Shown piece after piece: positions 16,466-34,481 of a stretch of 64,000 nucleotides of DNA (within the stretch, counting starts at the first letter, position 1; each line of letters starts with the position of its first letter). The stretch is taken from contig SKPH01000028.1 in the NCBI GenBank assembly GCA_007119615.1, forward strand, positions 4,134 to 68,133, in the 5' to 3' direction. This DNA is from Syntrophomonadaceae bacterium. Lineage in GTDB: Bacteria; Bacillota; Dethiobacteria; DTU022. A model generated the notes under the pieces. That model saw only the letters and a list, made by a program, of their open reading frames with translations, made no database searches and had not been told where the DNA came from. Made by a program: the position numbers and the translations under genes.

Positions 16466-17314
16466 TTAGGCGAAGGCTTCGGGTATTTCTTTTAAGACGG
16501 CGTAGCTGAATACGGGGCCGTCCTTGCACACGTACATACCGCCGGCATTACAGCGGCCGCATTTGCCGATACCGCATTTCATCCTGTTTTCCAGGGTGGT
16601 GTAGATCTGTTCATCGGAAAAGCCAAGTTTCTTCAGGTTCTCCAAAACAAAACGGATCATGATCGGCGGACCGCAGGTAATCGCAATCGTGTTTTCCGGA
16701 GAGGGGTTGAGGTCAAGCAACATCTGGGGAACAAAGCCAACGTTACCGCTCCAGTCTTCTTCTTCCACATCGATCGTCAGGTGGCAGGAAAGGTCGCTGC
16801 AACTTTCCATCTCTTCAAATTCTCCTTTGAAGCAGAGGTCACCTGAAGTGCGGGCACCATAGATCATGGTTAATCCTTCATACTGATCAAGATTTGCCCT
16901 GACATACTCTACTATGGGGCGCAGTGGCGCCTGGCCAATCCCTCCTCCGATGGTCAGGATCTTCTTACCCTGCCATTCATCGACCGGGAAACTGTTTCCA
17001 TACGGGCCGCGCACCATCATCTTATCGCCCGGCTCCAGCTGATGCAAGGCCTGGGTTACCTTACCCATGCGCATGACGGAAAAGCGCAGGAATTTGCCTT
17101 CGGTCGGAGAGCAAGAGATCGATATCATGCTTTCACCTGCACCCAGAACGCCAATCATGGCGCACTGGCCCGGCTGGTGGCTCCAGTTTTCACGCACTTC
17201 CTGATCATCAAAGACTACTTTGAAGGTTTTGATACAGCGCTCACCGTAGGTTTCAAACCAGGTTTCTTCTACGGTTGCAGTGTGGGGGATATAGGGGTTG
17301 CCGTTGGTTTTCAT
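16466..17314 (-). CDS. flxA: FAD/NAD(P)-binding oxidoreductase with C-terminal [2Fe-2S] (HydG/AsrB/PyrK-like); FlxA-like
   Basis: FNR-like fold (RFSV flavin motif, ILTIGGGIGQAPL NAD motif). C-terminal CGIGKCGRCN...C. Confidence 0.7.
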   Translation of the reverse strand: MKTNGNPYIPHTATVEETWFETYGERCIKTFKVVFDDQEVRENWSHQPGQCAMIGVLGAGESMISISCSPTEGKFLRFSVMRMGKVTQALHQLEPGDKMMVRGPYGNSFPVDEWQGKKILTIGGGIGQAPLRPIVEYVRANLDQYEGLTMIYGARTSGDLCFKGEFEEMESCSDLSCHLTIDVEEEDWSGNVGFVPQMLLDLNPSPENTIAITCGPPIMIRFVLENLKKLGFSDEQIYTTLENRMKCGIGKCGRCNAGGMYVCKDGPVFSYAVLKEIPEAFA

Positions 17315-18333
17315 AGCGCCTCCTCCACCTTCTTCAGAATTTCAACGATATCGATATTGACCGGGCAGAGGTTGATGCACCGCCCACATCCGACGCAAGC
17401 TATAACGTCAAACTTATCAACATAGTAACTGTATTTATGGCTGATCCGGTTCCGGGTCCTTTCCCGGCGGGTAGGTCGGGGATTGTGTCCCGAGGTGTGC
17501 AGAGTATATTCTCCGAACATACAAGAATCCCACATCCGGCAGCGTCTGGATTCAAAACCTTCCGTTTCGTCCTGGATGTCAAAGCAGTGGCAGGTCGGAC
17601 AGAGATAGGTACAGGTTCCACAGCCAAGGCATGATGCCGAAACGTTTTGCCAGAGAGGGTCTTCCCAAAGCCCCGGCAGTCCTTCGGGCACCCCTTCGGT
17701 TTTGACTTCACGCTTGATCTTTTTCTCTGCTTCAAGAACTAGCTTCTCTTTTTCCTTAACTGCGTCACTGTCTGCTTTCTCGAGCAGGTCACCAGCCGAT
17801 TCAAGCAGAGTTTCGCCTTTTTCAGTGAGAGCTTCGAGCAGGTAATTATCGCCGAGGTCGACCATCAGGAGGTCGAGTCCTTCAGTAGATGCGGGCCCGC
17901 CGCCGACCGAAGTGCAGAAGCAATTCAGTCCGGGATCGCTGCAGGCCAGTCCCACTACTGTAACCAGTTCGCGCCGCTTAACATAATAAGGATCGTCAAT
18001 GTCCCATCTAAATAGTTTCTCTACAATGGTCATGGCCCGCGCGTCGCATGGGCGCACACCGAGAAGTACGGTTTCGTCCTCGAGCTGAGGCTCTTCCATT
18101 TCTTCTGCGCCCAGCTGAAAGCGGTACATCGTTTCGGTTTGTGGAAAGAGCGCCTCCTTGGGCGGAACCCTTGTATTATTAAAGTCGAGGGCAGGTGTTT
18201 CACCTTCAGTTACCGGGGCAAAGCGCATCGCATCACCATCAGCCCCGGGAGCCCATAGCTTTTTACCGGCCAACTTTTCAACAAACTCAGGCCACTTTTC
18301 TTTTTTCAACAGCATCGCTGACATATCACCCAC
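17311..18333 (-). CDS. flxB: iron-sulfur protein, HydB/AsrA-like, with 2x[4Fe-4S] ferredoxin motifs; FlxB-like
   Basis: CLGCGTCTYLCP and CVGCGRCINLCP cluster motifs. 4-nt overlap with the flxA-like gene. Confidence 0.65.
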   Translation of the reverse strand: MGDMSAMLLKKEKWPEFVEKLAGKKLWAPGADGDAMRFAPVTEGETPALDFNNTRVPPKEALFPQTETMYRFQLGAEEMEEPQLEDETVLLGVRPCDARAMTIVEKLFRWDIDDPYYVKRRELVTVVGLACSDPGLNCFCTSVGGGPASTEGLDLLMVDLGDNYLLEALTEKGETLLESAGDLLEKADSDAVKEKEKLVLEAEKKIKREVKTEGVPEGLPGLWEDPLWQNVSASCLGCGTCTYLCPTCHCFDIQDETEGFESRRCRMWDSCMFGEYTLHTSGHNPRPTRRERTRNRISHKYSYYVDKFDVIACVGCGRCINLCPVNIDIVEILKKVEEAL

Positions 18334-18335
18334 CT

Positions 18336-19316
18336 CTACAGTATGAAGTCCTCAGGATCATCAGGCTTAAAGCTGGCCTGGAACGGTTCGGCCTCGGGAT
18401 CAACCCCGGGCTCGAAACCGTATTTATCCCGCACTTCCCGGGCCAGTTTGCGATTTAACCTGCCCAAAGGAATATTAGCCGGGCATACCCGCTCGCACTC
18501 ACCGCATTCGATGCAGCGGCCGGCGAGATGAAAAGCCCGGGCTATGTTGAAAGCCGTATTTTCGGAAAAGTTTACCGCACGGTTAACCCAGGTCGGGTTG
18601 AGACGATCAAGGATACAATCCTGGCAGTAGCAAAGGGGGCAAACATTACGGCAGCTGTAGCAGCGCACACATTTAGCGAACTGCTCCTCCCAGTAGGCTG
18701 CGCGCTCGTCGACATCCCTGTTTTCGATCTCTGCTACACCTTCATCTTCCACCAGCTCCCGGGTTTCTACCGGCTCACCCAGCATAACATCGCTGATAAC
18801 CGGATTTGGATAGCGGCAAAGACGGCATTTCTCAGCCAGCAGTTCATCCCTGCTTATTTCGATTTCTTCTTCACCGCGAACCAGAAGAAACCCGTCTTCA
18901 GTCCATTTTATTTCCACAGTTTCTTCCGTTTCGGGATATTTTTCAGCCAGCAGTTCAGGATCAACAACTCCCGGACAGGGGCACCCGATCACTACAACTT
19001 CTTCCCGGCCTATGCCCTTTTCTACCAGAAGTTGAGCTACCGCTCTGCTGTCGCATCCTTTAACCATAACGGCGACTTTGCGATCGTCCGCTTCCTGGCC
19101 GCGTGGAACCGGCAGTTTTTCTACCAGTGTCAGATAAGTAGCCAGGTTGGCGGTGCAGAGGGGTGAAAAGATCAACTCTGCAGCGCCGGCGGCATCTTCA
19201 ATAAAACCGGGGGCAACCCGGTAACCGTAGGAACCCTTTTTCCAACCGATAACGTATTTAACGTCCTCACGGTCCGCTACCTCCGCTGCGGTTTTTTGTA
19301 ATTGTTCCAGTTCCAT
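18336..19316 (-). CDS. flxC: iron-sulfur protein, FrhB/HydB-like N-domain plus 2x[4Fe-4S]; FlxC-like
   Basis: CVRCYSCRNVCP and CIECGECERVCP motifs. N-terminal FrhB-like region (VMVKGCDSRA). Confidence 0.65.
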   Translation of the reverse strand: MELEQLQKTAAEVADREDVKYVIGWKKGSYGYRVAPGFIEDAAGAAELIFSPLCTANLATYLTLVEKLPVPRGQEADDRKVAVMVKGCDSRAVAQLLVEKGIGREEVVVIGCPCPGVVDPELLAEKYPETEETVEIKWTEDGFLLVRGEEEIEISRDELLAEKCRLCRYPNPVISDVMLGEPVETRELVEDEGVAEIENRDVDERAAYWEEQFAKCVRCYSCRNVCPLCYCQDCILDRLNPTWVNRAVNFSENTAFNIARAFHLAGRCIECGECERVCPANIPLGRLNRKLAREVRDKYGFEPGVDPEAEPFQASFKPDDPEDFIL

Positions 19317-19331
19317 CTCTATAAACCCCTC

Positions 19332-19763
19332 CTACCAGTCGATCTGACGACGCCTGAAACCTTCAAACGGACCGGCTTCTCGTGCATCTTCAACGGTTTT
19401 TTCCACTACTTCTTTCCATTTATGTCCCTCGGAAGCAGATACCCAGCTCATATGAAAACGTCTGGGATCAACACCGATAAATTCCATCAGATCTTTAAGC
19501 ATGCCCAGGCGGCGCCTGGCATAGTAGTTGCCTTCCATGTAGTGGCAGTCCCCGGGATGGCATCCTGAAACGAGCACTCCGTCCGCGCCCTGCTGCAGAG
19601 CGTTCATCACATAGAGAGGATTTACCCGCCCGGAACACATAACCCGGATAATCTGGAGATTGGCCGGGTAGCGCTCCCTGCTTGTTCCGGCCAAATCGGC
19701 TCCGGCGTAGGAACACCAGTTGCAAAGGAAAGCTACAATGTTTGGTTCAAAGGTTGCACTCAT
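19332..19763 (-). CDS. mvhD: MvhD-type (methyl-viologen-reducing hydrogenase delta) [2Fe-2S] protein; FlxD
   Basis: IVAFLCNWCSYAGADLAG...IIRVMCSGRV...LVSGCHPGDCHY matches the MvhD signature. 4-nt overlap with hdrA. Confidence 0.85.
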   Translation of the reverse strand: MSATFEPNIVAFLCNWCSYAGADLAGTSRERYPANLQIIRVMCSGRVNPLYVMNALQQGADGVLVSGCHPGDCHYMEGNYYARRRLGMLKDLMEFIGVDPRRFHMSWVSASEGHKWKEVVEKTVEDAREAGPFEGFRRRQIDW

Positions 19764-21772
19764 TTTAAGACCCCCAATGCGGCAATCTGCGGTAAGATCT
19801 GGCGATCACGGAAAGATTTCGGTTGAATCGAATCTGACAGGCAGGCGGCCGAACATGAGCCGCAGCCTTTGCAGAGGGCCTCATTGACCCTGGCAACTTC
19901 CACCTCGTGTCCGAAGCGGTTAACGGTAACCATTTCAATAGCCGTATAGGGGCAGATGCTGACACAGAAACTGCAGCCCCTGCAGGTTGCCTCATTTACC
20001 GATGCAACCTGGGCGCCGATGGTCACCTTGCCGCGGGCCAGCGGGATCATTGCCGACGAAGCGGCACCCTTGGCCTGGGCCACCGTATCGGGAATATCTT
20101 TCGGGCCCTGGCAGCATCCGGCCAGGAAAACACCCTCTGTAGCCGTATCGACAGGCCGCAGTTTCGGGTGCGCTTCCAGGAAGAAGCGATCGGGCGACTG
20201 CGACAGCCGCAGCAGATCCATAACCTCGCGCATATCAGCGCGAGGCTCCAGGCCAACCCCCAAAACTACCAGATCGACTTCGTCTTCCAGCGGCGTGGCT
20301 GTCAGGGTGTCTTCAACCTTGACTACAAGCTTGTCACCACGCTTAAAGATTTCGGATGGGTTTCCACGGATGTAGCGGACGTTTTCACGGCGGACCCGAT
20401 CGTAAAACTCTTCGAAGCCCTTGCCGAAGGCCCGGACATCCATGTAGTATACCCTGATGTTAGCATCAGGCATTTTATCCCTGAGCAAGTGAGCCTGCTT
20501 GGCCACATACATACAGCAAACCCTTGAGCAGTATTCGTTACCGACACTTTTATCCCGGGAGCCGACGCACTTTATAAAAGCAATCTCTTTCGGTTCGATT
20601 TCTTCTTTACCGTTAAAGATCTTCACTTTTCCGCCGGTCGGACCCGATGCGGAAACAAGCCTTTCCATCTCCATACCGGTGATCACGTTGGGATAGTCGG
20701 CATAGCCGTATTCAGGTTTGCGCGAAGCATCGAAAGTATCAAATCCGGTCGCCACGATAACCGCACCGACTTTAAATTCAACCATTTCATCCTGCTGCTC
20801 AAAATTGATTGCTTCAGCTCCGCAAACTTCCTGGCATTTGGGGTTTTTACCGCATTTGCCCTTGCTGAGGAAAAGGCAGTTTTCGGCGTCAATGGTATAC
20901 TTGGCCGGAACCGCCTGGGGGAAGGGCAAATATATTGCCGAGCGTTTACCCATACCCTGGTCGAATTCGCTTGGAAAACGATCCTTAACCCGGCATGCCG
21001 CGGCACAATCGCCGCAGCCGGTGCACTTGTCAAAATCTACATAACGTGCTTTTTTGCGCACTTTTACATCGAAATTGCCGATAAAACCGGTAATCTCCTC
21101 AACTTCAGAGTAGCTCAGCAGCTCAATATTGGGGTGGCTGGCACAGTCGACCATTTTCGGGGTCAGAATACAGGCTGAACAGTCGAGGGTCGGAAATGTT
21201 TTATCAAGCTGGGCCATACGTCCGCCCACTGAAGGAGTTTTCTCCACCAGATAAACCTTGAACCCGGCATCAGCAATATCAAGCGAAGCCTGAATCCCCG
21301 CAATACCCGCCCCGATTACCAGGGCGGCAGGTTCAGCGTCTACTTCTTTTGATTCAAGCGCCTCCAGCAGCCTTGCCTTGGCGACAGCTGCTCCAACAAG
21401 CTTTTTCGCCTTCGCTGTGCCCTCTTCAATTTCTTCATGGACCCAGGAGCATTGTTCCCGAATATTGGCCATCTCAAGGAAAAAGGGGTTCACGCCCGCT
21501 TCCTTGATTGCTTTCCTGAAAGTCGGCTCGTGCATACGCGGCGAGCAGGAAGCGACAACAACCCGGTTCAATCCCAGTTCCCTGATATCATTTTTAATCA
21601 GGACCTGTCCGGGATCGGAACACATGTACGAATAGGTCCGCGCCACTTCCACATTCGGCAGTTTTTGCGCATATTCTGAAACTGCATCCACATCTACTGT
21701 CGACGAAATATTAATTCCGCAGTGACAGACATAGACGCCTACTTTCGGTTTTTCCGTCATCTGGCTTTTCAT
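19760..21772 (-). CDS. hdrA: heterodisulfide reductase subunit A (HdrA-like FAD/Fe-S flavoprotein)
   Basis: N-terminal Cys cluster, GAGIAGIQASLDIADAG FAD motif, inserted and C-terminal 4Fe-4S ferredoxin motifs (CTGCGDCAAAC, CRGCSFCVSICP, CKGCGSCSAAC). No in-frame TGA. Confidence 0.85.
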   Translation of the reverse strand: MKSQMTEKPKVGVYVCHCGINISSTVDVDAVSEYAQKLPNVEVARTYSYMCSDPGQVLIKNDIRELGLNRVVVASCSPRMHEPTFRKAIKEAGVNPFFLEMANIREQCSWVHEEIEEGTAKAKKLVGAAVAKARLLEALESKEVDAEPAALVIGAGIAGIQASLDIADAGFKVYLVEKTPSVGGRMAQLDKTFPTLDCSACILTPKMVDCASHPNIELLSYSEVEEITGFIGNFDVKVRKKARYVDFDKCTGCGDCAAACRVKDRFPSEFDQGMGKRSAIYLPFPQAVPAKYTIDAENCLFLSKGKCGKNPKCQEVCGAEAINFEQQDEMVEFKVGAVIVATGFDTFDASRKPEYGYADYPNVITGMEMERLVSASGPTGGKVKIFNGKEEIEPKEIAFIKCVGSRDKSVGNEYCSRVCCMYVAKQAHLLRDKMPDANIRVYYMDVRAFGKGFEEFYDRVRRENVRYIRGNPSEIFKRGDKLVVKVEDTLTATPLEDEVDLVVLGVGLEPRADMREVMDLLRLSQSPDRFFLEAHPKLRPVDTATEGVFLAGCCQGPKDIPDTVAQAKGAASSAMIPLARGKVTIGAQVASVNEATCRGCSFCVSICPYTAIEMVTVNRFGHEVEVARVNEALCKGCGSCSAACLSDSIQPKSFRDRQILPQIAALGVLK

Positions 21773-21806
21773 CCTCCCGCGAAGATTGGCCCCGGTATTA
21801 AACCGA

Positions 21807-22781
21807 TTACCCTTTTAATTCTTTCAGTTTCTCGGCTAACTTGGGCACAACCTTGAACATGTCATCGACAATGGCATAGTCGGCTACTGTAAAAATCGGG
21901 GCTTCGGGATCTTTGTTGATCGCCACCACTGTCTTGGCCCCTTTCATTCCGGCAAGATGCTGGAAAGCGCCGGATATGCCCATAGCAATATAGAGTTTCG
22001 GCTTGACAGTCTTGCCGGAAGTACCGACCTGACGGTCATGAGGTATCCATCCGGCATCTGTCGCCGCCCTGGAACCGGCAACATCGGCCTTGATCGCAGC
22101 GGCCAGCTCTTCGATTACAGGCAGGTTTTTATCTTCTTTGAGTCCGCGGCCGATGGCAATCAATATATCGGACTGCGTAATATCGACATCGCCGACTTCG
22201 GCTTCAATATATTCAACAAACTTGCGGTACGGAATATCTTCCTTCAAGGGTGACTCAATTTTTTCCACATCCGCTCCTGCTGAGGACTCCGGCGCTTCAA
22301 CAGCGCCTTCCCTGAATGTAACCAGGTAGGTATCGGCAGGCTTGAAAGCTACAGTGGCATTAACCTTACCGGAATAAAGCTGGCGTGTCACTTTCAGAAC
22401 ATCACCTTCGTATTCGAGGCCAATAGCTTCAGTAACCAGAGGCATTTTTTTCTCAACAGCCAGGGCAGGCATAAAATCGACCCCCTGGGCAGTGTGCCCG
22501 GTCATCAACAGGGCAGGTTTAAGATCATCGATCAGCGCCGACAATACTTTCTGATATTTTTCGGCATTGAAGTTTTCGAATAAGGGATCGTCAACCACCA
22601 TAACTTTAACCCCGTATCCGGCAATCTTTTTAGCCATTTCATCCATCCCGCTGCCAATTAACAGCACAACGGCTTCGCCGCCCATATTTCCGGCAAGCCC
22701 GGGGGCTACAGCCAGCATTTCGAACGAAATATCTCTTAGCGCACCCTGGCGGTGTTCGGCTAAAACTAAAACGTTACCCAT
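21807..22781 (-). CDS. etfA: electron transfer flavoprotein alpha subunit
   Basis: EtfA domains I-III with FAD-binding C-terminus ([19 protein letters not shown]). 34-nt gap to hdrA containing only a GGGAGG RBS and no terminator. Confidence 0.85.
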
Positions 22782-23569
22782 TATACCAAGCCTCCCTTAA
22801 CCAATATGGATGCCAGTTTTTCTGCTTTTTCTTCCGGTTCACCCTCAAGGAATTCAGCGGTTGATTCCACTTCGGGAATATAAAGTTTTTCTATGACAAC
22901 CTGGGATGCATCGGATCCGACTGAATCCGGATCAACACCGATATCATCGAGGCTGACAACTTTTAATTCTTTTTTCTGTGCCTGGCGGATACCACGAATC
23001 GGTGCATAACGGGGTTCATTAATCCCGGTCTGGATGGTCAGGACAGCGGGCAGTTCAACTTCAACTGATTCCAGCATCCCGCCTTCAAGTTCGCGATGAA
23101 CCGTGACTTTACCGTCGCCAACTTCCACTTTCTTGACCATCGTAGCATGGTTGACTCCCAGTTCTTCAGCCAGGGCCGCGCCGGTGGCCATATGCCCGTC
23201 ATCAACAGCCACACAGCCGGTCATGATCAGATCAAACTCGTGGCCCTTGATTGCTCCGGCCAGTGTTTTCGCCACCATCAGCGGATCATGGCCTGCAATG
23301 CGATCATCCTCCACCCGGACCGCCTGATCGCAACCCTTGGCCATGGCCATACGGATCATTACATCAGACTTTTTCGGCCCGATCGAAAAGACGGTAACCT
23401 CTCCGCCCTGCGCTTCCTTAATCAATACCGATTCTTCAACTGCATAGTTGTCGGAATCGTTGATATCGAAGGAAAAACGACTGTCATCGACCGATATGCC
23501 GTCCGGATTCACCTTGACTTCCGCTTCGGAAGTGTCGGGCACATACTTGATACAAACCAGGGTTTTCAT
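22781..23569 (-). CDS. etfB: electron transfer flavoprotein beta subunit
   Basis: MKTLVCIKYVPD start is typical of EtfB. 1-nt overlap with etfA. Confidence 0.85.
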   Translation of the reverse strand: MKTLVCIKYVPDTSEAEVKVNPDGISVDDSRFSFDINDSDNYAVEESVLIKEAQGGEVTVFSIGPKKSDVMIRMAMAKGCDQAVRVEDDRIAGHDPLMVAKTLAGAIKGHEFDLIMTGCVAVDDGHMATGAALAEELGVNHATMVKKVEVGDGKVTVHRELEGGMLESVEVELPAVLTIQTGINEPRYAPIRGIRQAQKKELKVVSLDDIGVDPDSVGSDASQVVIEKLYIPEVESTAEFLEGEPEEKAEKLASILVKGGLV

Positions 23570-23604
23570 TCGTTCTTTCCACCTCCTGCTAAATTATAAA
23601 ATGC

Positions 23605-24741
23605 TTAAGCTTCAATATGCTCACCCAGAAGCTCCATGATTTCCGCTACGCGCATCTCTTCTTCAAAGCCGAGCCCTTTCATTGAATCTTCCAGGGTCAT
23701 AACGCAGAAAGGACAGGCGACGGCGACAATATCGGCCTGCAAATCTTTTGCATCTTTAATCCGCGTGTCGGCCAGCCGCTCCTTCTTCGATTCAGACTCC
23801 ACCCACATCTTACCGCCGCCTCCTTCACAGCATAGGCTGCGTTCGCGGCTTCGGTCAAACTCAACCACTTCCACTCCGGGAATACTTTTCAATAATTCCC
23901 GGGGCTCGTCGTAGACATCTCCCTGTTTGCCAAGGTAGCATGGATCGTGGTAAACAATCCTCTTTTGTAAATCGCCTTTCCAGGTTAGCTTGCCTTCGTG
24001 AAGCAGTTCAACCAGGAGCTGAGTATAGTGAAGAATCGGAGTCTTGAGATCAGGATAGTGAGTTTTGTAGGTGGTAAAACAGTGCGGTGAAAGGGTTACA
24101 ATTCGCTTTGCGGAATATTCATTTAAATACTCCGTATTGTCTTCAACCAGCATTTCAAACAGCCCTTCCTCGCCCAGGGTGAAAACTTCACTGCCGCAGC
24201 AGCTCTCTTCCTCGGGCAAAAAGGCGTAGTCAATGCCGGCCTTGTTTAACAGCCTGACCATATTTTTAGCAATAGCCTGGACCCGTGGGTCGTATGCAAT
24301 CGTGCAGCAGACAAAAAAGAGGTTCTCTACCTCAACCCCGGGTTCGGCAATCTTTACATCAAGTCCTTCCATCCAATCCGAACGGGCCGCCCTGGATTTC
24401 TCCCAGGGGTTTCCTTCGAGGAGAACACTCTGCAGAGCATCGCGCACGGTTGGTTCGACCTTGCCGCTTTCGACTATCATGGAGCGGAGTCCGATTAAAA
24501 CCTCCAGCGGCTTTAAGCCCTTGGGACAGCGTACGGCACAGGTGTGGCAGGCTGTACAATCCCAAATTTCGGCCAGCCTGGCCAACTCGTCAAGCTTTTC
24601 TTCGTTGTAGGCATCGTAAACGAATTGGCGTACATTCAGATTAGCCCGCACAGTAACCGGGCAACCGCCGGTACAACGACCACATTGGATGCAACCAAGC
24701 AGATCATACTTTTCGGTAAAGGTCTGGATTTCGGTACTCAT
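23605..24741 (-). CDS. soluble HdrD/GlcF-like Fe-S oxidoreductase (N-terminal 2x[4Fe-4S], two CCG domains = HdrC+HdrB fusion)
   Basis: CIQCGRCTGGCP and CTACHTCAVRCP motifs. Two CCG-type Cys-rich domains (CCGSE..., CCEGGGG). No TM helix. Start at MSTEIQ has a GGGGT RBS; the ORF track start is 24759. Confidence 0.75.
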   Translation of the reverse strand: MSTEIQTFTEKYDLLGCIQCGRCTGGCPVTVRANLNVRQFVYDAYNEEKLDELARLAEIWDCTACHTCAVRCPKGLKPLEVLIGLRSMIVESGKVEPTVRDALQSVLLEGNPWEKSRAARSDWMEGLDVKIAEPGVEVENLFFVCCTIAYDPRVQAIAKNMVRLLNKAGIDYAFLPEEESCCGSEVFTLGEEGLFEMLVEDNTEYLNEYSAKRIVTLSPHCFTTYKTHYPDLKTPILHYTQLLVELLHEGKLTWKGDLQKRIVYHDPCYLGKQGDVYDEPRELLKSIPGVEVVEFDRSRERSLCCEGGGGKMWVESESKKERLADTRIKDAKDLQADIVAVACPFCVMTLEDSMKGLGFEEEMRVAEIMELLGEHIEA

Positions 24742-25010
24742 CAGCATACCCCGCATCATTTAGTGATTATTTAACTTCCAGGCTCCCGGCAAACCCAATC
24801 ACTTTCGCCGGATAAAAATTCAAAATAGATCCCCGCAGGCGCCACCTCCCGGTTCTTTGATGATAATTATCAGACAATTGCGATATATATAGCCTATCTT
24901 AGTAAATTTCGACATTTCCTTTAATTCTTCCTGCCTGAATTTTTAAATTCATAAATATTTAACATAATCAACTATTAACTTAATAAATTGATTGACGGTC
25001 CGGTTAAAAC

Positions 25011-26060
25011 TCAAGCTATAACGATTCTGCCGGCCGGTCCCTCTGTGATACGGCCGATAGTCTGACCGCTTACTCCGTTTTCCTGCAGCACAGTTAAATA
25101 TTGTTTATGCCTGTCCGGGGGAACAGCAACCAGCAGCCCGCCCGAGGTTTGCGGATCAGACAAAATGATCAGAGCGTCATCTTTCTTTTCGGGTTCGCCA
25201 CTCCAGGTTATATACGGCCTCATATAATCGAGGTTGCGGTAAGCCCCCCCGGGGATCATGCCCATTGCTGCCATCTCTTCAACAGCAGGATACAGGGGCA
25301 CTTTTTGATAATCTATTTCGGCAGCGCTTATGCTGGAAAGCAGCATTTCATAAAGATGACCCAGCAAACTAAATCCGGTTACATCGGTACAGGCCGATAC
25401 ACCGACCCTGATCATCGATTCGGAAGCCGCGGCACTGAGCGCTTTCATGCCGTTGATTACCTCTTCGGCATCTTTTTCCGTAATTATTTCACCTTTAAGT
25501 GCGGTAGCGATAATTCCCGTTCCGATCGGCTTGGTCAAAACGAGAAGGTCATCCGGGTTTGCGCCTTCGGAGGTAACCATCTTGTCGATGTCGACCACAC
25601 CGGTAACTGAAAGCCCGTACTTGGGTTCCGGGTCTTCAACACTGTGACCACCAACCAGGGCCGCTCCGGCTTCGATAATTTTGTCGCAGCCGCCACGTAA
25701 AATTGACTCCATCACTTCAAGCGGCTGGCACGATACCGGGAAACAGATAATATTTAAGGCGGTAAGCGGTTTTCCACCCATGGCGTAAACATCACTAAAC
25801 GCATTGGCCGCAGCGATTTGGCCGAACGTGTAAGGGTCGTCAACAATGGGCGTGAAGAAGTCCACCGTCTGAACCAGAGCCTGGTTTTCCGATATACGGT
25901 AAATACCGGCATCGGAAAAGTGCTGTTCGCGGTTCAAATAGTCCGGATCGTCTGTAGCGGGCAAATGGCGCAGAACCTGCGCCAGGGCCTCGGGCCCGAT
26001 TTTAGCCGCTCAGCCGGCACTCGTAGTCATGGCAGTCAGACGTATCTCATCAAAACTCAT
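25011..26060 (-). CDS. selD: selenide, water dikinase (selenophosphate synthetase), selenoprotein with in-frame UGA (Sec) at 26010..26012
   Basis: The ORF track stops at TTG 25964. Reading upstream through TGA gives MSFDEIRLTAMTTSAG-U-AAKIGPEALAQVL, homologous to the E. coli SelD N-terminus (Cys17 position). ATG 26058-26060 has a GGAAGGTGA RBS. Confidence 0.85.
25967..25997 (-). promoter_or_regulatory. putative bacterial SECIS element (two adjacent hairpins 13-45 nt 3' of the UGA)
   Basis: Minus strand after UGA: gcggcuaaaaucGGGCCcgaGGCCCu-GGCGCAGguuCUGCGCC. Confidence 0.55.
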
Positions 26061-26064
26061 CGGC

Positions 26065-27993
26065 TCACCTTCCTTTCCTCTGCCGCTCAAGTTTCAATGC
26101 CACCCGGTGATCTTCAACCCGCCTGGTCATCCTGGCCTGGTCAAAATGCTCAAGCAGGGCCTGGGCGAACTTTCGGGAGCTCCCGGTGATATCCCTGAAC
26201 TGGGCCAGGGTCAGGGTTTCGTTTTCGGCAAAGTGCCCCCTCAGCAGGTTTAAAGCTTCATCGTAGGCATCGCTGTGAAAGTAGAGCTCTTCAGTTATTT
26301 TGATCAGACTTTCTTGCGCCAGAAGGTAATTTATAAGTTCATCCCTGCGCCCCGGATCTGCTCCCGCTTTTTCCAGGGCATTTTTTACCGCGGGAGGCTG
26401 GAACCAACCCGACCGGTAAATTTCAGCTAAACTGTCAAGCCGCTTTTTATCTTCGGACGATGGCTCGGGCTTAAAATGATAAAGCGACACCAGGTCGCCT
26501 TTTGATACAGCGAGCTTTCTTTCCCGGAGGCTGCCCAGCAGGGCATCGTAATCGCGCTGACTGAATGCGGAAGGTAAAAACCCTTTTAACTGGGCCCGTG
26601 AAATTCCCGGCGATAGTGGATATTTTTTATGATATTTATCCAGTTGGGCCAGTAAACCTGCTTCATATTCCTTCAGAACCGTGGTAATAATAAATGCGTT
26701 TCCCATCTTTTGCACCAGCCCCTGTGATGCAAGTTCCCCAAGGATTGAATTTACTTTTCCCCGGTCCAGGCGGGTTTCCCCGGCCAGCAGGTCACTGTCG
26801 GCTGCAACGAGTTCTTCCAGTTTGCGTCTCACGAAAGCGGAATCCCCTCCCTCGGTCGGCGCCTGTCTTAATTCATTTAAGCGTTCAATAACCTCGGTCC
26901 GAAAACGTCGATGCCTATGGGGATAGGGGTCGAGTACCAGCCCACCGCCAATAGTAGTCATCGGCGAATAGGATCGGATTACAAACGGATCGCCGCGTTC
27001 GGCAACTACGGGGCGCTCTAAACGACACTGCACAAGGGCGCTATCTCCGGGGCGCAGCTCTTCGCTGTCGAGCAGTAAAAGCCGGCCCACGGTACGGGCC
27101 GTGCCCAAAAAAAAGTGGACCGGGTCTAGATTCTTAAGGCGACGCGGAGCCCGCTCCAGGAGCTGAACTGAAACATCAATTAGATCGGTCTGGCGATAGT
27201 AGCCAGGATTGCTGATCACGCTGCCTCTTATAATCCGATCTTTTTCCAACCCTGACAGGTTCAGGGCAACCCTGGCACCCGCTTTTACTTCCCTGACATC
27301 CGCATCATGAACCTGGATGTTGCGCACCCTTGCTTCAGCGCCGGGGGGAACAACCGATACTGTGTCGCCGACGCGAACAGAACCCTGAATCAGGGTCCCT
27401 GTTACCACGGTTCCAAAACCGGCAATAACGAAAGAACGGTCTACAGGCAGGCGAAGGGGTCCGGAAGCATTGCGCGGCTCCAGGTCGGCAGTCATAGAAT
27501 CGATCAACTCTTTGAGCTCTTCTATCCCCTGTCCCTGAATGGCTGATACGGAGTGAACCGGCGCACCTTCCAAAAATGTTCCCTGCAGCTCTTCTGCTAT
27601 TTGCTCCCGGACCAGCTCCCGCCATTCTTCTTCAACCAGATCGATCTTGGTAATAACAACAAGGCCTTTTTGAGTTCCGAGCAGCTCCAGGATGTCGAGA
27701 TGTTCCCTGGTCTGAGGCATTACTCCCTCGACAGCATCGACAACCAGCATTACCAGGTCCATACCGGCCGCACCGGCAAGCATATTGTGTATAAATCGCT
27801 CGTGACCGGGCACATCGATAACTCCCGCCAATCTTCCGCCCGGTAGCCGGAAAGGGGCAAAACCGAGGTCGATTGAAATGCCTCGTTCTTTTTCTTCCTG
27901 AAGCCGATCGGTGTCAATGCCGGTTAGCGCCTTAATCAGCACTGTTTTGCCGTGGTCAACATGGCCGGCTGTGCCTATTATTAACTGCTCCAA
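26065..27993 (-). CDS. selB: selenocysteine-specific translation elongation factor
   Basis: [14 protein letters not shown]-domain plus C-terminal winged-helix region. TTG start with AAGGAGTG RBS; the ORF track start 28035 is over-extended. Confidence 0.85.
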
Positions 27994-28015
27994 GTTGCTG
28001 CCACTCCTTGTGTCG

Positions 28016-29449
28016 CTAGTTCCCGTCAGTTTCAAAAGCGATGCGTACTGCCTCGATCAAAGCATTTTCCTGGTCTTCGAAGATGGTTCGCGGATCAAAA
28101 AACAGGGTATCCTGATGGAGACGCAAGATTACAGGGGGATCGCCACGGCGTAGTTTCTCAACCAGTTCAGCAGGATGTATGCCACCCCCTGAAAGCTTTA
28201 CCGCCGCCAGGTAAGTGGGCAGCTCCGCCATGGGCAGGGCCCCGCCTCCTACCCTGGATATACCTTCTGCTACAAATACGTTATCCGTTCCGAATATTCC
28301 GGAGAGGCCTCCGGCAAGCGCCCGGGCGCGCTTGTTAAGGGTCTCTTTATCAGCGGTAAGCATCCGCCAGACCGGTATCTCTTTTATTGCGGTTTCCTCC
28401 TCGAGGTAGAGGCGCAGGGTTGCCTCAAGGGCGGCAATTGAAAATTTATCGACGCGCAGGGTCCTGGCCAGCTGGTTGGCGCGGATATATGATATCAGGT
28501 CTTTGCGTCCGACAATTATTCCGGCCTGAGGGCCGCCTAGCATTTTATCCCCGCTAAAGGTAACCAGATCGGCTCCGGAGGCGATACTGTCCTGAACCCG
28601 GGGCTCCGCAGGGAGGTTATATTTATTAAGATCGATAAATACACCGCTGCCAAGATCTTCAATTAGAAGCAGGCTGTATTTATGGGCCAGGGTAGAAAGA
28701 TCTTCTGTATCTACCGCTGCTGTAAAACCGATCATATGGTAATTACTGGTATGGACCTTAAGCAAGGCAGCGGTATTTTCATTCACCGCTGCTTCATAAT
28801 CGCGGAGGTATGTTTTGTTGGTTGTTCCGACCTCTACCATTGAAGCGCCGCTGGCGGCCATAATCTCAGGGATGCGAAATGATCCGCCAATTTCGACAAG
28901 CTGGCCCCTCGATACAACCACTTCCCTGCCTGAGGCTGTTGCATTCAGGGCAAGAAACACCGCTGCTGCATTGTTATTCAAAACAACGGCCGCCTCGGCT
29001 CCGCTCAATTCACAAAGAAGCTCTTCAAGGTGTTCCTGGCGTGAACCGCGGTTGCCGCTTTCCAGGGAAAGCTCGAGATTGTTGTAATTTTCCGCTATGG
29101 ATGTCATGGCCTTAACCGCCGCTTCGGGAAGCGGAGCTCGTCCAAGGTTGGTGTGGATGATAATTCCCGTAGCGTTGATCAGAGCTCTCAGGTTTGATCC
29201 GGCTTTTTTTTCTGCCATCGCAGCGGCCTCCAGGGCCAGCCCGGCAGGGGAGAGATCAATTCTCCCGGCTGCATCTTCTGCACCGACTTGATCTGTCAAC
29301 CGGCGGCGGTAAGAATCTATTGTTTCCTGGGCCGAATGCAGGACCACACGGCGAGGTAACCGCTGCAGGAGTTCCTCCAGCACCGGCTCTCGGAGCAGCC
29401 GATCAACCGCCGGCAATTCACGAAGCAGCGACTGATACTTGCCCACCAT
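28016..29449 (-). CDS. selA: L-seryl-tRNA(Sec) selenium transferase
   Basis: Full-length SelA-like (PLP fold, ...[15 protein letters not shown]...). Confidence 0.85.
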
Positions 29450-30127: not shown

Positions 30128-30868
30128 TCAGACCAAAACACTATAGGTTTTTCCTTCCCTGGCCAGGTCGGCACCGGGAAAGTGTTTTTTTGCCTCAGTC
30201 AGCAATATCTCCGGATCCCTTGCCGGATGCCGGTGAGTCAGAAGTAGCCTCTTAACCCGGGCCTCCGAAGCAACTTCGGCTGCCTGGGCGGCGCTGAGAT
30301 GATTCGGCAGGTTCCTTTGCATGTCTGCATCCTGGAAACTTGATTCGCAGAGGAATAAATCAGCGTCTGCAGCAAACTCTGCGAGGCTGTTATGGTACTC
30401 TGTATCTCCAGAGTAAACCATAGTTTCCGATGATGATTGTATTCTATAGGCCAGGGAAGGGATAGAATGGACTCCCAGCCTGGTTTGAATATTAAACGGT
30501 CCGATTTGCAGTTCCTGATCTGTACCCAGGGGGATTACATCATAAGCATTTTTATACGGCAGTCTTTCAAACTCTGGTCCGGGTTCAGCAGGAGCATAAA
30601 GAGGCAGGGGTTCACTGCGCAAGCCCCGCTCGTAAGCCATCTCGAGACCATAGCGCATGATCATGATATCTGAGACGTGATCGGCATGCAGGTGAGAAAG
30701 GATCACGGCATTTAAGTAATAGTAGCTCATATGCTCCTGCAGCCGGCTTAATACGCCGTTACCGCAGTCGATTAAAAGGCTGTACCCTTCTTTACGGAGC
30801 AGATACCCGGAACAACAACCTCCTGCAGGCGGGTAGGGCCCATAACAGCCAAGAATGGTCAGTTTCAT
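30128..30868 (-). CDS. MBL-fold metallo-hydrolase
   Basis: HLHADHVSD metal-binding motif and beta-lactamase fold. Confidence 0.75.
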   Translation of the reverse strand: MKLTILGCYGPYPPAGGCCSGYLLRKEGYSLLIDCGNGVLSRLQEHMSYYYLNAVILSHLHADHVSDIMIMRYGLEMAYERGLRSEPLPLYAPAEPGPEFERLPYKNAYDVIPLGTDQELQIGPFNIQTRLGVHSIPSLAYRIQSSSETMVYSGDTEYHNSLAEFAADADLFLCESSFQDADMQRNLPNHLSAAQAAEVASEARVKRLLLTHRHPARDPEILLTEAKKHFPGADLAREGKTYSVLV

Positions 30869-31098: not shown

Positions 31099-33420
31099 CT
31101 AAGTTACAGTTAATGCTTTGACTTCACCCCGATCAATTTTCGGCTGCAAAATTTCTTTAACTTCCCCCTTGGAACTGAAATAAAGAATTTGCCAGCCGTC
31201 GGCGCAGATTCCGGCCAGCATATTCATAAGCAGCTTTAACCTTTCAGAGTCGGCCTTGATAAAAGGATCGTCGAGGATGAAAAAACCTTTATTCCCTTCA
31301 AGCAGTTTTTCACCGAGAGCCAGCCTGATCGAGAAGTACAGCTGATCGTAAGCTCCTCCTGAAAGCTGATAAGCATCAAGCTCGATCCCGTCATCACGAA
31401 TAACCCTGATTTTATTTTCCCTGCTCTCAAAAACCACTTCCCGGTAACGTCCCCCGGTAATCTGGCTGAAATATCCGCTGACCGGGTTATCGGAACCGAA
31501 CAGGGCGGTAACTTTTTCTTCTTCCTCCTGCTCCAGGGCGCTAAGTATTTCAAGGGCTGCAGTAGCATTGGCCCTGTTATCTTCATGATCCCGGATCCAC
31601 TGATCAAGTTTTTGCTGGATTACTTCCAGATCTAAGGTGGTCTGGCAGGGCAGCATGCTCCCTTCAGATTCATGGAGCAGTTCATTAATTCCTTTTTCAA
31701 TATCGCGCAGCGCATCATGACGTTCCTGCATTTTTTCACTCAACTTTTTTTCGTCCCGGTCCAGCTCCTCAATTTCTTCGTTCAGTCTTGTAAATTCTTT
31801 CTGGTCATATCTTAAACCCTTTGCGGCTTCTGCATAGTCCTGAACGCCTTTTACCTCTTCCTCCCAGAATGATATCCGGGCCTCCCCGGAAGTCAACTCA
31901 GAGCCTTCCCCAAAATGGCTGCTCAATATGCTGCTCTGCCTTTCCGCTTCACCTTTGCACTTCTCTTTCTTATCCAGGACAGCGCTATATTGATCCAGTG
32001 TATCGAGCCCCGAATCCCTCCGGATTTTATCGATCTTTTCTTCTGTTTCGTTTATTTTCAATAATTTTTCCTGCAGTTCTGACTGAAAACGTTTTTCTTC
32101 TTTCAGCTGCCACTGCAGCCCGGTTTCTGCTTCGCTTAGCTGATCGGCTGCAACAGCCAGGCTCTTCTTAAGGCTGCTGATTTTTGCCCGGACTGTCTGG
32201 ATATCACCCGCGGGCAAACCGGCTTTTTCGGCTTCACCACGGACTTTTGCTTCAATTTCCGCCAGTTCGCTCTTCTTTTTTAAAAAGCGGTATTTATTCC
32301 AGGCCAGCGTTGCGGTTACGGCAAAGGAAACCGCAAGCATTGTTAAGAGCCACCATGCAGGCTGGAAAATGGCGCCGGTCAGGGCCAGTATAAATACCAG
32401 GGTTGAGACTACAGCCGTCCGATTGTAGAGAGTTGAGCTGACAAGCGGCTCCTGCCCCTGAACGGCAAGATATTTACGTTCATATTCTGCCAGCACCGGT
32501 TCGACCTTTTCTGATACAGCGGCAGTCTCAAACTCGGCCTTTTTATATGCACTCTTTTTTTCGCTTAAATCGTCCCGGGCTACCTGCAAAACTGTTTTAT
32601 GTTCTTCCATCTCCCGTTCCAGCCTTACCAGGTCATTGCGGAAATGATTAAGGCTTGTTTCAGCAAGCTGCCAGGCATCGAAATCGTCCCGGTTGTAATT
32701 TTTTAACTCTTCCGCTTCAGCAAGGACCCGTTTCAACCGCCCGAGGGCCTCTTCCCCTTTTTCAAACAGTTCCCTGTTCTGAGCGGCCCGGTACAGGTTC
32801 AACTTTTCCACCTTATCGCGGTTCCGGGCTTCCAACCCGGCAAGCTCTTCTTCAAACCGGCTGAAACCTTCTTCATTCAAATCAGCCAGCAGTTCTTCAA
32901 CTCTTTCCGACAAACTTTGCGCCTTCCTGATTTTGTCTTTCAATTTTACCGGGGTCACATTCTGATATTCACCGCCTGCAGTGATCCCGCCCAACTCATA
33001 AATCCTGTTTTTTATTTCATCGATCTCTCCGGTGCGAAGACCGGTCAACCGGTTGGTAATATCCCGGTAAAACATACTTTCATTGTTAATCGAGAGATCA
33101 CTGTCGCGGATGACAAAGATACTTGCAAACTCGGTAGGACTGAGACCAAATAGCTCTTCGACAGTGCCGGCGTCGGGCAGTTTGAACTCTTTGCGATCCC
33201 CGTCCTCTAGAACCAGGTAGCCGTCGGGGTTTTCATCTACCCTTTTAATGCCTTTAAACTGCCTGATACCTTTACCGAGCAGCATCCTGAGCAGGGCATC
33301 AATGGTCAGGGTTTTGCCTTCCTCATTGGGTCCCGAAAACAGGTTGAAAGAGCCTGTTTTTTTCAGTCCGGTATCAGGCAGGGGCCCGTAGCGCCTGATT
33401 GAAAACTCTTTCAGGAACAT
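31099..33420 (-). CDS. SbcC/Rad50-like AAA ATPase with central transmembrane hairpin (Bacillus YhaN/SbcE-type)
   Basis: N-terminal Walker A (GPNEEGKT). Long coiled coils. Two central TM helices (VVSTLVFILALTGAIF, WWLLTMLAVSFAVTATLAW). C-terminal signature LSGGAYDQ and D-loop ILDDPF. Confidence 0.75.
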   Translation of the reverse strand: MFLKEFSIRRYGPLPDTGLKKTGSFNLFSGPNEEGKTLTIDALLRMLLGKGIRQFKGIKRVDENPDGYLVLEDGDRKEFKLPDAGTVEELFGLSPTEFASIFVIRDSDLSINNESMFYRDITNRLTGLRTGEIDEIKNRIYELGGITAGGEYQNVTPVKLKDKIRKAQSLSERVEELLADLNEEGFSRFEEELAGLEARNRDKVEKLNLYRAAQNRELFEKGEEALGRLKRVLAEAEELKNYNRDDFDAWQLAETSLNHFRNDLVRLEREMEEHKTVLQVARDDLSEKKSAYKKAEFETAAVSEKVEPVLAEYERKYLAVQGQEPLVSSTLYNRTAVVSTLVFILALTGAIFQPAWWLLTMLAVSFAVTATLAWNKYRFLKKKSELAEIEAKVRGEAEKAGLPAGDIQTVRAKISSLKKSLAVAADQLSEAETGLQWQLKEEKRFQSELQEKLLKINETEEKIDKIRRDSGLDTLDQYSAVLDKKEKCKGEAERQSSILSSHFGEGSELTSGEARISFWEEEVKGVQDYAEAAKGLRYDQKEFTRLNEEIEELDRDEKKLSEKMQERHDALRDIEKGINELLHESEGSMLPCQTTLDLEVIQQKLDQWIRDHEDNRANATAALEILSALEQEEEEKVTALFGSDNPVSGYFSQITGGRYREVVFESRENKIRVIRDDGIELDAYQLSGGAYDQLYFSIRLALGEKLLEGNKGFFILDDPFIKADSERLKLLMNMLAGICADGWQILYFSSKGEVKEILQPKIDRGEVKALTVT

Positions 33421-34481
33421 GCCTTCACCACCCTGAAAGCCCTGATGGCCATCTTTTTTACTGCTTCTTTTTGGTCCCGAGGGTAATCGGCCTGTTCAAG
33501 TTTTTCGTTAAACTGCTTAAAGAGATCATCTTCCAGGATATGCTGAACATCGTAAAATTCCAGGGCTGGTTCTTCGGCAAAACGGGATCCGGCCCTTTCC
33601 ATAATCCCTGCCGCCAGCTCATTTTCATCCATGCCGAGGGCTGAGCCATTAAACAGACCGCGGACAGTAAGGATCACTTTTGCATTCCGGTGCAGCTCCT
33701 GCATTTTATTATCAAGGAGAGAAAGAGGATCTTCCAGGTTGAAGGGGTCAAGCGATATAACCAGTTCTTCGAAGTAATGCGTGTCCAGAGGTATTTCTAC
33801 CGGATCCTCACCCGGCGCAACCAGGTTTGCGGCCCTCCTGCCGGCCTCCCGCCTGGTAACTGCGACCGGAGAGCCGGAATAGATAAATAATCCCCCGCCG
33901 GGTATCTGCCAGCTCGTATACCGGGAATGGAAATGCCCCGCCAGAACATACTGAAGGGGTAGCGATTCGAAGTAAGAGAGGCGGACCGGCATGTATCTCA
34001 GGTCGCCTTCATCTCCCAGATCTTCGCGGGAGAAAAATGCATCCAGGAGCTCTCCGTGAAAAAGCAGAAAGTTCGCTTGATCAGGATTCATGCGCCCGGC
34101 CATATCCCGCAAGCGGCTTACCATTCTGCCACCGCTCAAACGCTCGTAAGGAAGGCCCCAGATTGCCGCATCGTCGATGTAAACCGGCTCTTCCCAGTTG
34201 GTGATTACTGTTACATTCTCACCAAAGTAGAGACCACTGCGGTAAGACCTGTAATCGTGGTTTCCCGGAAGGATTATTGTCATGAAATCTGCGCCGCCGA
34301 GCTCGGATCGCAGCCGGGCCCTGAGCTTCTCTGCTTCAATATTATGATCAAAAAGATCGCCGGCTATTACCAGGGCTGAAACCTGATGCTTCCTGGCGAT
34401 TTCCACGAGTTCACCCAGGGCATCCCATCGTTCAGCAGCAGTTTCTGTTAAATGTAAATCAGCGGTATGCAGCAGCTTCAA
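33411..34481 (-). CDS. SbcD/Mre11-like metallophosphoesterase (YhaO/SbcF-type)
   Basis: LLHTADLHL, IAGDLFDH, LPGNHD motifs. TTG start. 10-nt overlap with the ATPase gene. Confidence 0.75.
   Translation of the reverse strand: MKLLHTADLHLTETAAERWDALGELVEIARKHQVSALVIAGDLFDHNIEAEKLRARLRSELGGADFMTIILPGNHDYRSYRSGLYFGENVTVITNWEEPVYIDDAAIWGLPYERLSGGRMVSRLRDMAGRMNPDQANFLLFHGELLDAFFSREDLGDEGDLRYMPVRLSYFESLPLQYVLAGHFHSRYTSWQIPGGGLFIYSGSPVAVTRREAGRRAANLVAPGEDPVEIPLDTHYFEELVISLDPFNLEDPLSLLDNKMQELHRNAKVILTVRGLFNGSALGMDENELAAGIMERAGSRFAEEPALEFYDVQHILEDDLFKQFNEKLEQADYPRDQKEAVKKMAIRAFRVVKACS

Follow-up and report, generated by a model that had tools for sequence, protein, structure and literature searches.

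A selD gene with an in-frame UGA codon and two downstream hairpins in the selA–selB–selD operon of an uncultured Bacillota bacterium

The locus described here encodes selenide, water dikinase (selenophosphate synthetase; SelD) and lies in a 64-kb stretch of bacterial DNA, hereafter the window, where it directly follows selA and selB (Table 1). Read from the window, the selD frame runs on the minus strand from ATG 26060–26058 to the stop codon TGA 25013–25011 and consists of the ATG, 15 more sense codons, an in-frame TGA at 26012–26010 (codon 17), 332 sense codons and the stop; its translation with read-through begins MSFDEIRLTAMTTSAG*AAKIGPEALAQVL... The stop codon of selB (TGA 26067–26065) is located 4 nt ahead of the selD ATG. 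The mechanical ORF for selD opens only at TTG 25964–25962 and gives 317 amino acids, and the public gene calls for GCA_007124665.1 (contig SLES01000096.1) and for the matching ENA assembly cut selD to the same 317 amino acids. The 317-residue call is devoid of the entire catalytic loop, and the correct product has 349 residues with selenocysteine (Sec) predicted at position 17. An initial annotation of this DNA had given the ATG, the in-frame TGA, the TTG and the stop at coordinates that all match the sequence, and had noted that the ORF track truncates selD, a truncation whose start at TTG 25964 is now seen to recur in the public calls. It had also proposed a proper ATG with an RBS at 26058–26060, in line with the purine tract GGAAAGGAAGGTGA that precedes this codon.

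Table 1. Positions of the genes and sequence elements of the selA–selB–selD locus and of the adjoining redox cluster in the window.
Feature	Position	Strand	Details and basis
selD, selenide, water dikinase (selenophosphate synthetase)	25011..26060	-	349 residues, Sec predicted at residue 17; HMMs, domains, alignments
In-frame UGA, codon 17, predicted to be read as selenocysteine	26010..26012	-	Cys17 alignment, homologues, assemblies
Shine–Dalgarno-like purine tract GGAAAGGAAGGTGA	26061..26076	-	Overlaps selB stop codon; read from sequence
Hairpin 1, GGGCC-CGA-GGCCC	25985..25997	-	G16–C20 with G24–C28, loop C21 G22 A23; MFE fold
Hairpin 2, (U)GGCGCAG-GUU-CUGCGCC(A), 8 bp	25966..25984	-	U29–G36 with C40–A47, loop G37 U38 U39; MFE fold
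selB, selenocysteine-specific elongation factor, 642 amino acids	26065..27993	-	TIGR00475, 369.1 bits (cut-off 242); start as in public gene calls
selA, L-seryl-tRNA(Sec) selenium transferase	28016..29449	-	TIGR00474, 587.3 bits (cut-off 268); Pfam SelA, 502.7 bits
HdrD/GlpC-like CCG iron–sulfur protein (CCG + 2x[4Fe-4S])	23605–24759	-	Downstream of selD
EtfB	22781–23569	-	
EtfA	21807–22781	-	
HdrA	19760–21772	-	
MvhD/FlpD	19332–19763	-	
Three Flx-like iron–sulfur and NAD-binding subunits	16466–19316	-	

The SelB protein contains the GTP_EFTU and Beta-barrel_SelB domains followed by the winged-helix, SECIS-binding domains SelB-wing_2 and SelB-wing_3, and it aligns along its whole length to the ribosome-bound E. 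coli SelB (5LZB). The start of selB is ambiguous (27993–28035): the mechanical ORF, from TTG 28035, overlaps the 3′ end of selA by 20 nt, the public start lies 14 codons later at 27993, and on the longer version TIGR00475 matches only from residue 18 onward. The initial assignment of selB and selA to the region directly upstream of selD is borne out by HMM matches above the respective cut-offs on the same strand. Of the Sec machinery, the window holds selA, selB and selD, all adjacent, and no tRNA-Sec was found within the 64 kb. ARAGORN and Rfam detected no tRNA gene at all in the window, and hence no selC; a selC gene would therefore lie elsewhere, unlinked to selAB–selD in this genome.

Downstream of selD, an AT-rich gap of 251 nt precedes a series of redox genes; a promoter and terminator scan of this 3′ flank found nothing. 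The redox cluster (16466–24759, minus strand) suggests a flavin-based electron-bifurcating Etf/Hdr/Flx module. The earlier description of an Hdr/Flx operon next to selD is broadly borne out; the HdrA–MvhD–Flx-like cluster is located downstream, with the HdrD-like iron–sulfur protein and EtfBA lying between it and selD. HdrA, MvhD and GlpC-like proteins are of the Sec type in some anaerobes (PMC1794560). In the window, the HdrA, MvhD and HdrD-like genes are uninterrupted ORFs with full domain matches and no in-frame UGA. A six-frame scan in which two ORFs were linked across one TGA gave 39 candidates, the longest coding-strand ones of which were inspected by translation; those inspected were ordinary stop-codon overlaps or antisense frames and were rejected as selenoproteins. 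The scan yielded no plausible second candidate, in agreement with the earlier statement that no other gene with an in-frame TGA is present in the window.

Some further genes of the window deserve mention. A 246-residue protein of the metallo-beta-lactamase fold is encoded at 30128–30868 (minus strand). It matches NF041851, the 'cyclic nucleotide-degrading phosphodiesterase' family, with 152 bits, far short of the cut-off of 400, as well as RNase Z models, and its public precomputed Pfam matches include Anti-Pycsar_Apyc1; the candidates are a housekeeping RNase Z-like enzyme and an Apyc1-like nuclease. The interval 31099–34481 (minus strand) includes the gene of a 773-residue protein whose matches, of the SMC/Rad50 type, are all weak (about 25 bits) and for which the public calls list no Pfam family. 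This gene is preceded and slightly overlapped by a gene for a 356-residue metallophosphoesterase, and the pair looks SbcCD-like.

For the profile searches of the selD product, the TGA was replaced by Cys in the 349-residue query. The product matches TIGR00476 over residues 7–317 with 369.7 bits (cut-off 125) and NF002098 with 326.9 bits (cut-off 299), and comprises an AIRS domain (PF00586, 96.4 bits) and an AIRS_C domain (PF02769, 64.5 bits). The features that define the family are all present, namely the equivalog match (TIGR00476), the N- and C-terminal AIRS domains and the Gly-rich loop with Sec/Cys and Lys; judged by these, the read-through product is a bona fide full-length SelD of the PurM-like AIRS superfamily. 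E. coli SelD (PDB entry 3U0O) is alignable over its full length (residues 1–348, E = 3.5e-70) and shares the same Gly-rich loop, Lys20 and the Asp-containing motifs, the conserved motifs including DAG/DAA, VDFFTPIVD, SDVYAMGG and TDVTGF. The N-terminal loop reads SAG-U-AAK in the window, GAG-C-GCK in 3U0O and SSG-C-AAK in 2YYE. E. coli SelD has Cys17 where the window gene has UGA/Sec, and hence E. coli selD has no SECIS. In mutagenesis of the E. coli enzyme, Cys17 and Lys20 are both reported to be needed for catalysis. The selD gene of E. coli is not known to lie in a cluster with selAB. The Sec residue had initially been placed at the position of E. coli Cys17, and the alignment with 3U0O puts the UGA exactly there. 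The alignment of the 26060–25011 translation with SelD families likewise returned a full-length SelD, in which the UGA does not fall outside the conserved Cys/Sec position. The best structural relative by sequence is Aquifex aeolicus SelD (2YYE and 2ZOD; E = 6.6e-73 for 2YYE, which also aligns over its full length), the local motif of which, SSG-C-AAKVGP, closely resembles the SAG-U-AAKIGP of the window protein. Native A. aeolicus SelD is of the Sec type and was reportedly crystallised as a Cys mutant. A. aeolicus belongs to a different phylum from the window organism, and the comparison is one of proteins only.

A homologue scan covering one genome per prokaryotic species gave 80 loci encoding SelD relatives, each of which was translated in frame. 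The homologous codon is TGA in 73 of them and Cys (TGT/TGC) in the other seven, and the loci with TGA or Cys span Bacillota, Chloroflexota, Deltaproteobacteria, Acidobacteriota and others. Read in frame, the peptide is conserved before as well as after the UGA (...RLT-MT-SAG-*-AAKIGP...). The gene accordingly presents the pattern by which selenoproteins are recognised, an in-frame UGA facing Cys or UGA in homologues, with coding conservation on both flanks. Such a Sec/Cys dichotomy at one codon, as read from the aligned homologues, is the signature of true selenoproteins. The initial proposal that selD is itself a selenoprotein gene with an in-frame UGA gains support from the 73 homologous loci that share the TGA. 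At the protein level, the closest SelD relatives are encoded by Bacillota metagenome-assembled genomes (MAGs; 74% identity), a Syntrophomonadaceae MAG (68%) and Pelotomaculum (53–55%). The selD gene of the window is an undescribed species-level ortholog, the closest sequenced relatives being only 68–74% identical.

Two hairpins follow the UGA in the coding region, and their positions are numbered with the U of the UGA as 1. Hairpin 1 occupies nt 13–25 and hairpin 2 nt 26–44 past the UGA; the two abut with zero spacer, and their loops, CGA and GUU, are 17 and 33 nt from the UGA, respectively. They had been described as two perfect hairpins 13–45 nt 3′ of the UGA, a placement that is confirmed at nt 13–44, and both are present in the MFE structure predicted by RNAfold for a 71-nt segment (−33.6 kcal/mol, z = −2.68 versus dinucleotide shuffles). 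As a stricter null for a coding region, the same 17-residue peptide was recoded synonymously with the codon usage of the window (n = 5000). The 36-nt two-hairpin core has an energy of −23.0 kcal/mol, compared with a mean of −9.5 ± 3.0 kcal/mol for the recodings, none of which was equally stable. The stability of the hairpins is well beyond chance or coding constraint. In the MFE fold, the UGA itself is part of an additional closing stem (GCGG...CCGC), the bases of which are not conserved among relatives; this stem was not counted as part of the element.

Both hairpins have the form of a bacterial SECIS, i.e. a stable stem-loop that lies just 3′ of the UGA and whose apical loop carries a guanosine. 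The SECIS model of Zhang and Gladyshev from 2005 reportedly places the loop about 16–37 nt from the UGA. The loop guanosines of SECIS elements are conserved (PMC2398784). Rfam at gathering thresholds detected no SECIS, tRNA-Sec or any other family in the whole 64-kb window, and at E values up to 10 the region 25800–26200 gave just chance-level snoRNA and lncRNA matches. To our knowledge, Rfam has no model covering coding-region bacterial SECIS elements of this kind. Bacterial SECIS elements are too diverse for a single model (PMC12013277), which accounts for the lack of an Rfam match to the hairpins; for the same reason the non-match is no argument against a bacterial SECIS.

To score the two-hairpin structure, 70 Sec-type selD genes were aligned without gaps over the UGA and the following 51 nt. 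Pairing occurs in 72.6% of cells compared with 65.0 ± 0.9% in column shuffles, none of which reached 72.6% in 500 trials, and falls to 25–50% in controls in which the 3′ partners were slid by 1–3 columns. Changes on both sides are found in ten of the 13 pairs. Pair 18–26 of hairpin 1 occurs as U-A (30 genes), G-C (11) and A-U (8), and pair 33–43 of hairpin 2 as A-U (15), G-C (12), C-G (5) and U-A (4). The Ala27 codon has its wobble base at position 33, and position 43 is the first base of the codon following Leu30, so that covariation in hairpin 2 changes the residue after Leu30 (GCA/UGY, Cys; GCG/CGC, Arg; GCU/AGC, Ser; GCC/GGU, Gly). The RNA structure appears to dictate the amino acid after Leu30 in those Sec-type selD genes that carry hairpin 2, where this residue tracks the wobble base of the Ala27 codon. 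In one Acidobacteriota selD, a Gln-to-Glu change (CAG to GAG) is offset by a Leu codon change from CUG to CUC.

The two hairpins differ in their distribution. In the hairpin 1 zone, 69 of the 70 Sec-type genes have a hairpin of 4 bp or more. Hairpin 2, with at least six of its seven pairs, is found in 32 of the 70, with a GUN loop every time; its carriers in this alignment are mainly Clostridia-type Bacillota, with a few Chloroflexota and one Deltaproteobacteria MAG, and it also occurs in one Acidobacteriota gene outside the alignment. Several Clostridia-type genes have a perfect hairpin 2 and a hairpin 1 that has decayed to 3–4 bp or is shifted in register. Among the seven Cys-type genes, pair 19–25 of hairpin 1 forms in none and pair 18–26 in two, and every position of hairpin 2 pairs in four at most; on this pairing count, neither hairpin is predicted to form in these genes. 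Hairpin 2 has five stem codons (Leu, Ala, Gln, Leu and Arg), each of which is identical across five sequences, that of the window and those of the four relatives closest to it, whereas the loop Val codon varies (GTT, GTA and GTG). Further downstream in the same five sequences, only eight of 67 degenerate codons with an invariant amino acid are identical, which gives a hypergeometric estimate of about 1e-4. From the invariance of the stem codons, the covariation and the absence from Cys-type genes, it follows that the hairpins are under RNA-level selection tied to the UGA. The hairpins had been said to lie where a bacterial SECIS is expected, and this is strengthened by their conservation and covariation over the 70 Sec-type genes.

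The locus is very probably a normal selA–selB–selD operon of an uncultured member of the Bacillota, in which selD encodes the Sec form of selenophosphate synthetase. This account builds on observed features: the identity of the gene, the position and conservation of the UGA, the two hairpins, which are conserved in evolution, and the selA and selB genes. We infer that Sec is inserted at UGA17 and that a hairpin is contacted by SelB. Translation would be coupled to the end of selB and begin at ATG 26060, and the ribosome would reach the UGA at codon 17. The complex of SelB, GTP and Sec-tRNA(Sec), tethered to the downstream mRNA stem-loop (the bacterial SECIS) by the C-terminal winged-helix domains of SelB, would then deliver selenocysteine and out-compete RF2 termination at UGA17. 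Within the Gly-rich N-terminal loop (SAG-U-AAK), Sec would take the place that the catalytic Cys17, next to Lys20, has in E. coli SelD. SelD would also need its own product, via SelA, for its synthesis, the long-recognised autocatalytic loop of Sec-type SelD.

Three other readings of the UGA were considered. Little credence can be given to read-through without Sec, by near-cognate Trp or Cys or by Cys-tRNA(Sec) under selenium scarcity, with the hairpins serving mainly as a read-through or pausing element. Read-through of this kind has been proposed for insect SPS1-UGA genes, where it is enhanced by stem-loops adjoining the UGA (PMC4561486), and some bootstrapping route is logically required for the first SelD molecules; however, selA and selB are located immediately upstream in the same operon, the hairpins occupy the position of a bacterial SECIS and carry loop guanosines, and the homologues show the Sec/Cys dichotomy at this very codon. 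That the UGA is a genuine stop, selD being a pseudogene or a gene truncated at its N-terminus and started downstream (e.g. at TTG 25964), is hardly tenable. The mechanical and public calls of 317 residues from TTG 25964 agree with such a stop, and TGA serves as a normal stop elsewhere in the window, where it terminates selB, selD itself and other genes (four of the 16 long ORFs sampled); this ordinary usage rules out a general reassignment of TGA. A truncated SelD would nevertheless be without the Gly-rich loop and the equivalents of Sec/Cys17 and Lys20 on which catalysis in E. coli depends. Moreover, the 16 codons before the UGA (IRLT-MT-SAG) are conserved in frame in dozens of distant genomes, the same TGA is kept in 73 of the 80 homologues, a start codon with a Shine–Dalgarno-like tract is present at 26060, and conserved, covarying hairpins lie 3′ of the UGA. 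There is practically no chance that the TGA arose by a mistake in the sequencing or assembly of a MAG. The window derives from metagenomic assemblies, but 73 other genomes likewise have TGA at this codon, and an assembly error is excluded because three independent assemblies agree through the TGA and the hairpins. The identical sequence is found in the NCBI MAG GCA_007124665.1 (SLES01000096.1) and an ENA assembly (121-kb contig), both with the complete 141-nt stretch compared, and in the Logan assembly of SRR7083931, a separate run, where the contig ends after the first 114 nt.

Given a Sec-encoding UGA, the question is which hairpin SelB would contact. The reference bacterial element for comparison is the SECIS of E. 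coli fdhF, with its minimal hairpin at 11 nt, G23, GGUC loop and bulged U. Like the window element, it is a coding-region stem-loop that follows the UGA, and it is bound by SelB in E. coli. Hairpin 1, a nearly universal element among Sec-type selD genes, starts 12 nt after the UGA, compared with 11 nt for the minimal fdhF hairpin, and its loop residue G22 adjoins the position of fdhF G23. The G-GUU-C apex of hairpin 2 resembles the fdhF GGUC loop. The window has two abutting hairpins with 3-nt loops and no bulged U, in contrast to the one long, bulged stem of fdhF, and its GU-containing loop is 33 nt from the UGA, compared with about 19 nt in fdhF. We favour hairpin 2 as the one that would bind SelB in this lineage, the folded hairpin 1 being an ancestral or spacer element, because the apex of hairpin 2 is similar to the characterised SECIS loops of the GGUC type and because hairpin 2 is kept in Clostridia-type genes despite the decay of hairpin 1.

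It is possible, although rather doubtful, that the arrangement represents a distinct 'tandem' class of SECIS. Hairpin 2, with its GUN loop, would bind SelB, and the folded hairpin 1 would act as a spacer that brings hairpin 2 to the ribosomal mRNA entrance with the UGA in the A site. RNA pairing, and not protein function, would determine which of Cys, Arg, Ser or Gly follows Leu30. If this were true, only the division of labour between the hairpins would be new, as the layout itself is already depicted for selD of Clostridiales (PMC4561486, Suppl. S6). There, in RNAz models of the selD bSECIS, stem2 appears to lie downstream of stem1 in Clostridiales, and stem2 by itself fits the bSECIS model (Mariotti et al., 2015; PMC4561486, Suppl. 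S6). This tandem stem1/stem2 layout equals hairpins 1 and 2 of the window, and the optional extra stem of the Clostridiales model that includes the UGA (PMC4561486) is also seen in the window MFE fold. The Sec-type SelDs of Clostridiales and other anaerobes (PMC1794560; PMC4561486, Suppl. S6, Fig. SM6.1A) belong to the same family and have a single Sec site with the SECIS within the coding sequence after the UGA; nothing of substance differs between the catalogued Sec-type SelDs and that of the window.

The Sec-containing selD found here is a textbook arrangement, very widespread and already described, and brings no new concept. Knowledge of Sec-type SelD, of its autocatalytic logic and of its SECIS goes back to the 1990s, and genome-wide surveys have covered them. 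Among bacterial selenoproteins, FdhA and SelD have by far the widest distribution, and retention of the Sec trait for SelD itself has been discussed (Zhang et al., 2006; PMC1794560). Sec-type genes make up 19% of prokaryotic SelD genes, with the Sec position always identical (Mariotti et al., 2015; PMC4561486). The novelty that the initial annotation implied for a 'self-referential' SelD is not upheld, as few selenoproteins of bacteria are better known than this one (PMC1794560, PMC4561486). The practical result is one of annotation, the correction of a truncated selD call in a public MAG. In addition, a Sec-type selD marks the organism as a selenocysteine user, and other UGA-interrupted genes of this organism (FdhA, Grd, HdrA and MvhD types) should therefore not be dismissed as split genes or pseudogenes.
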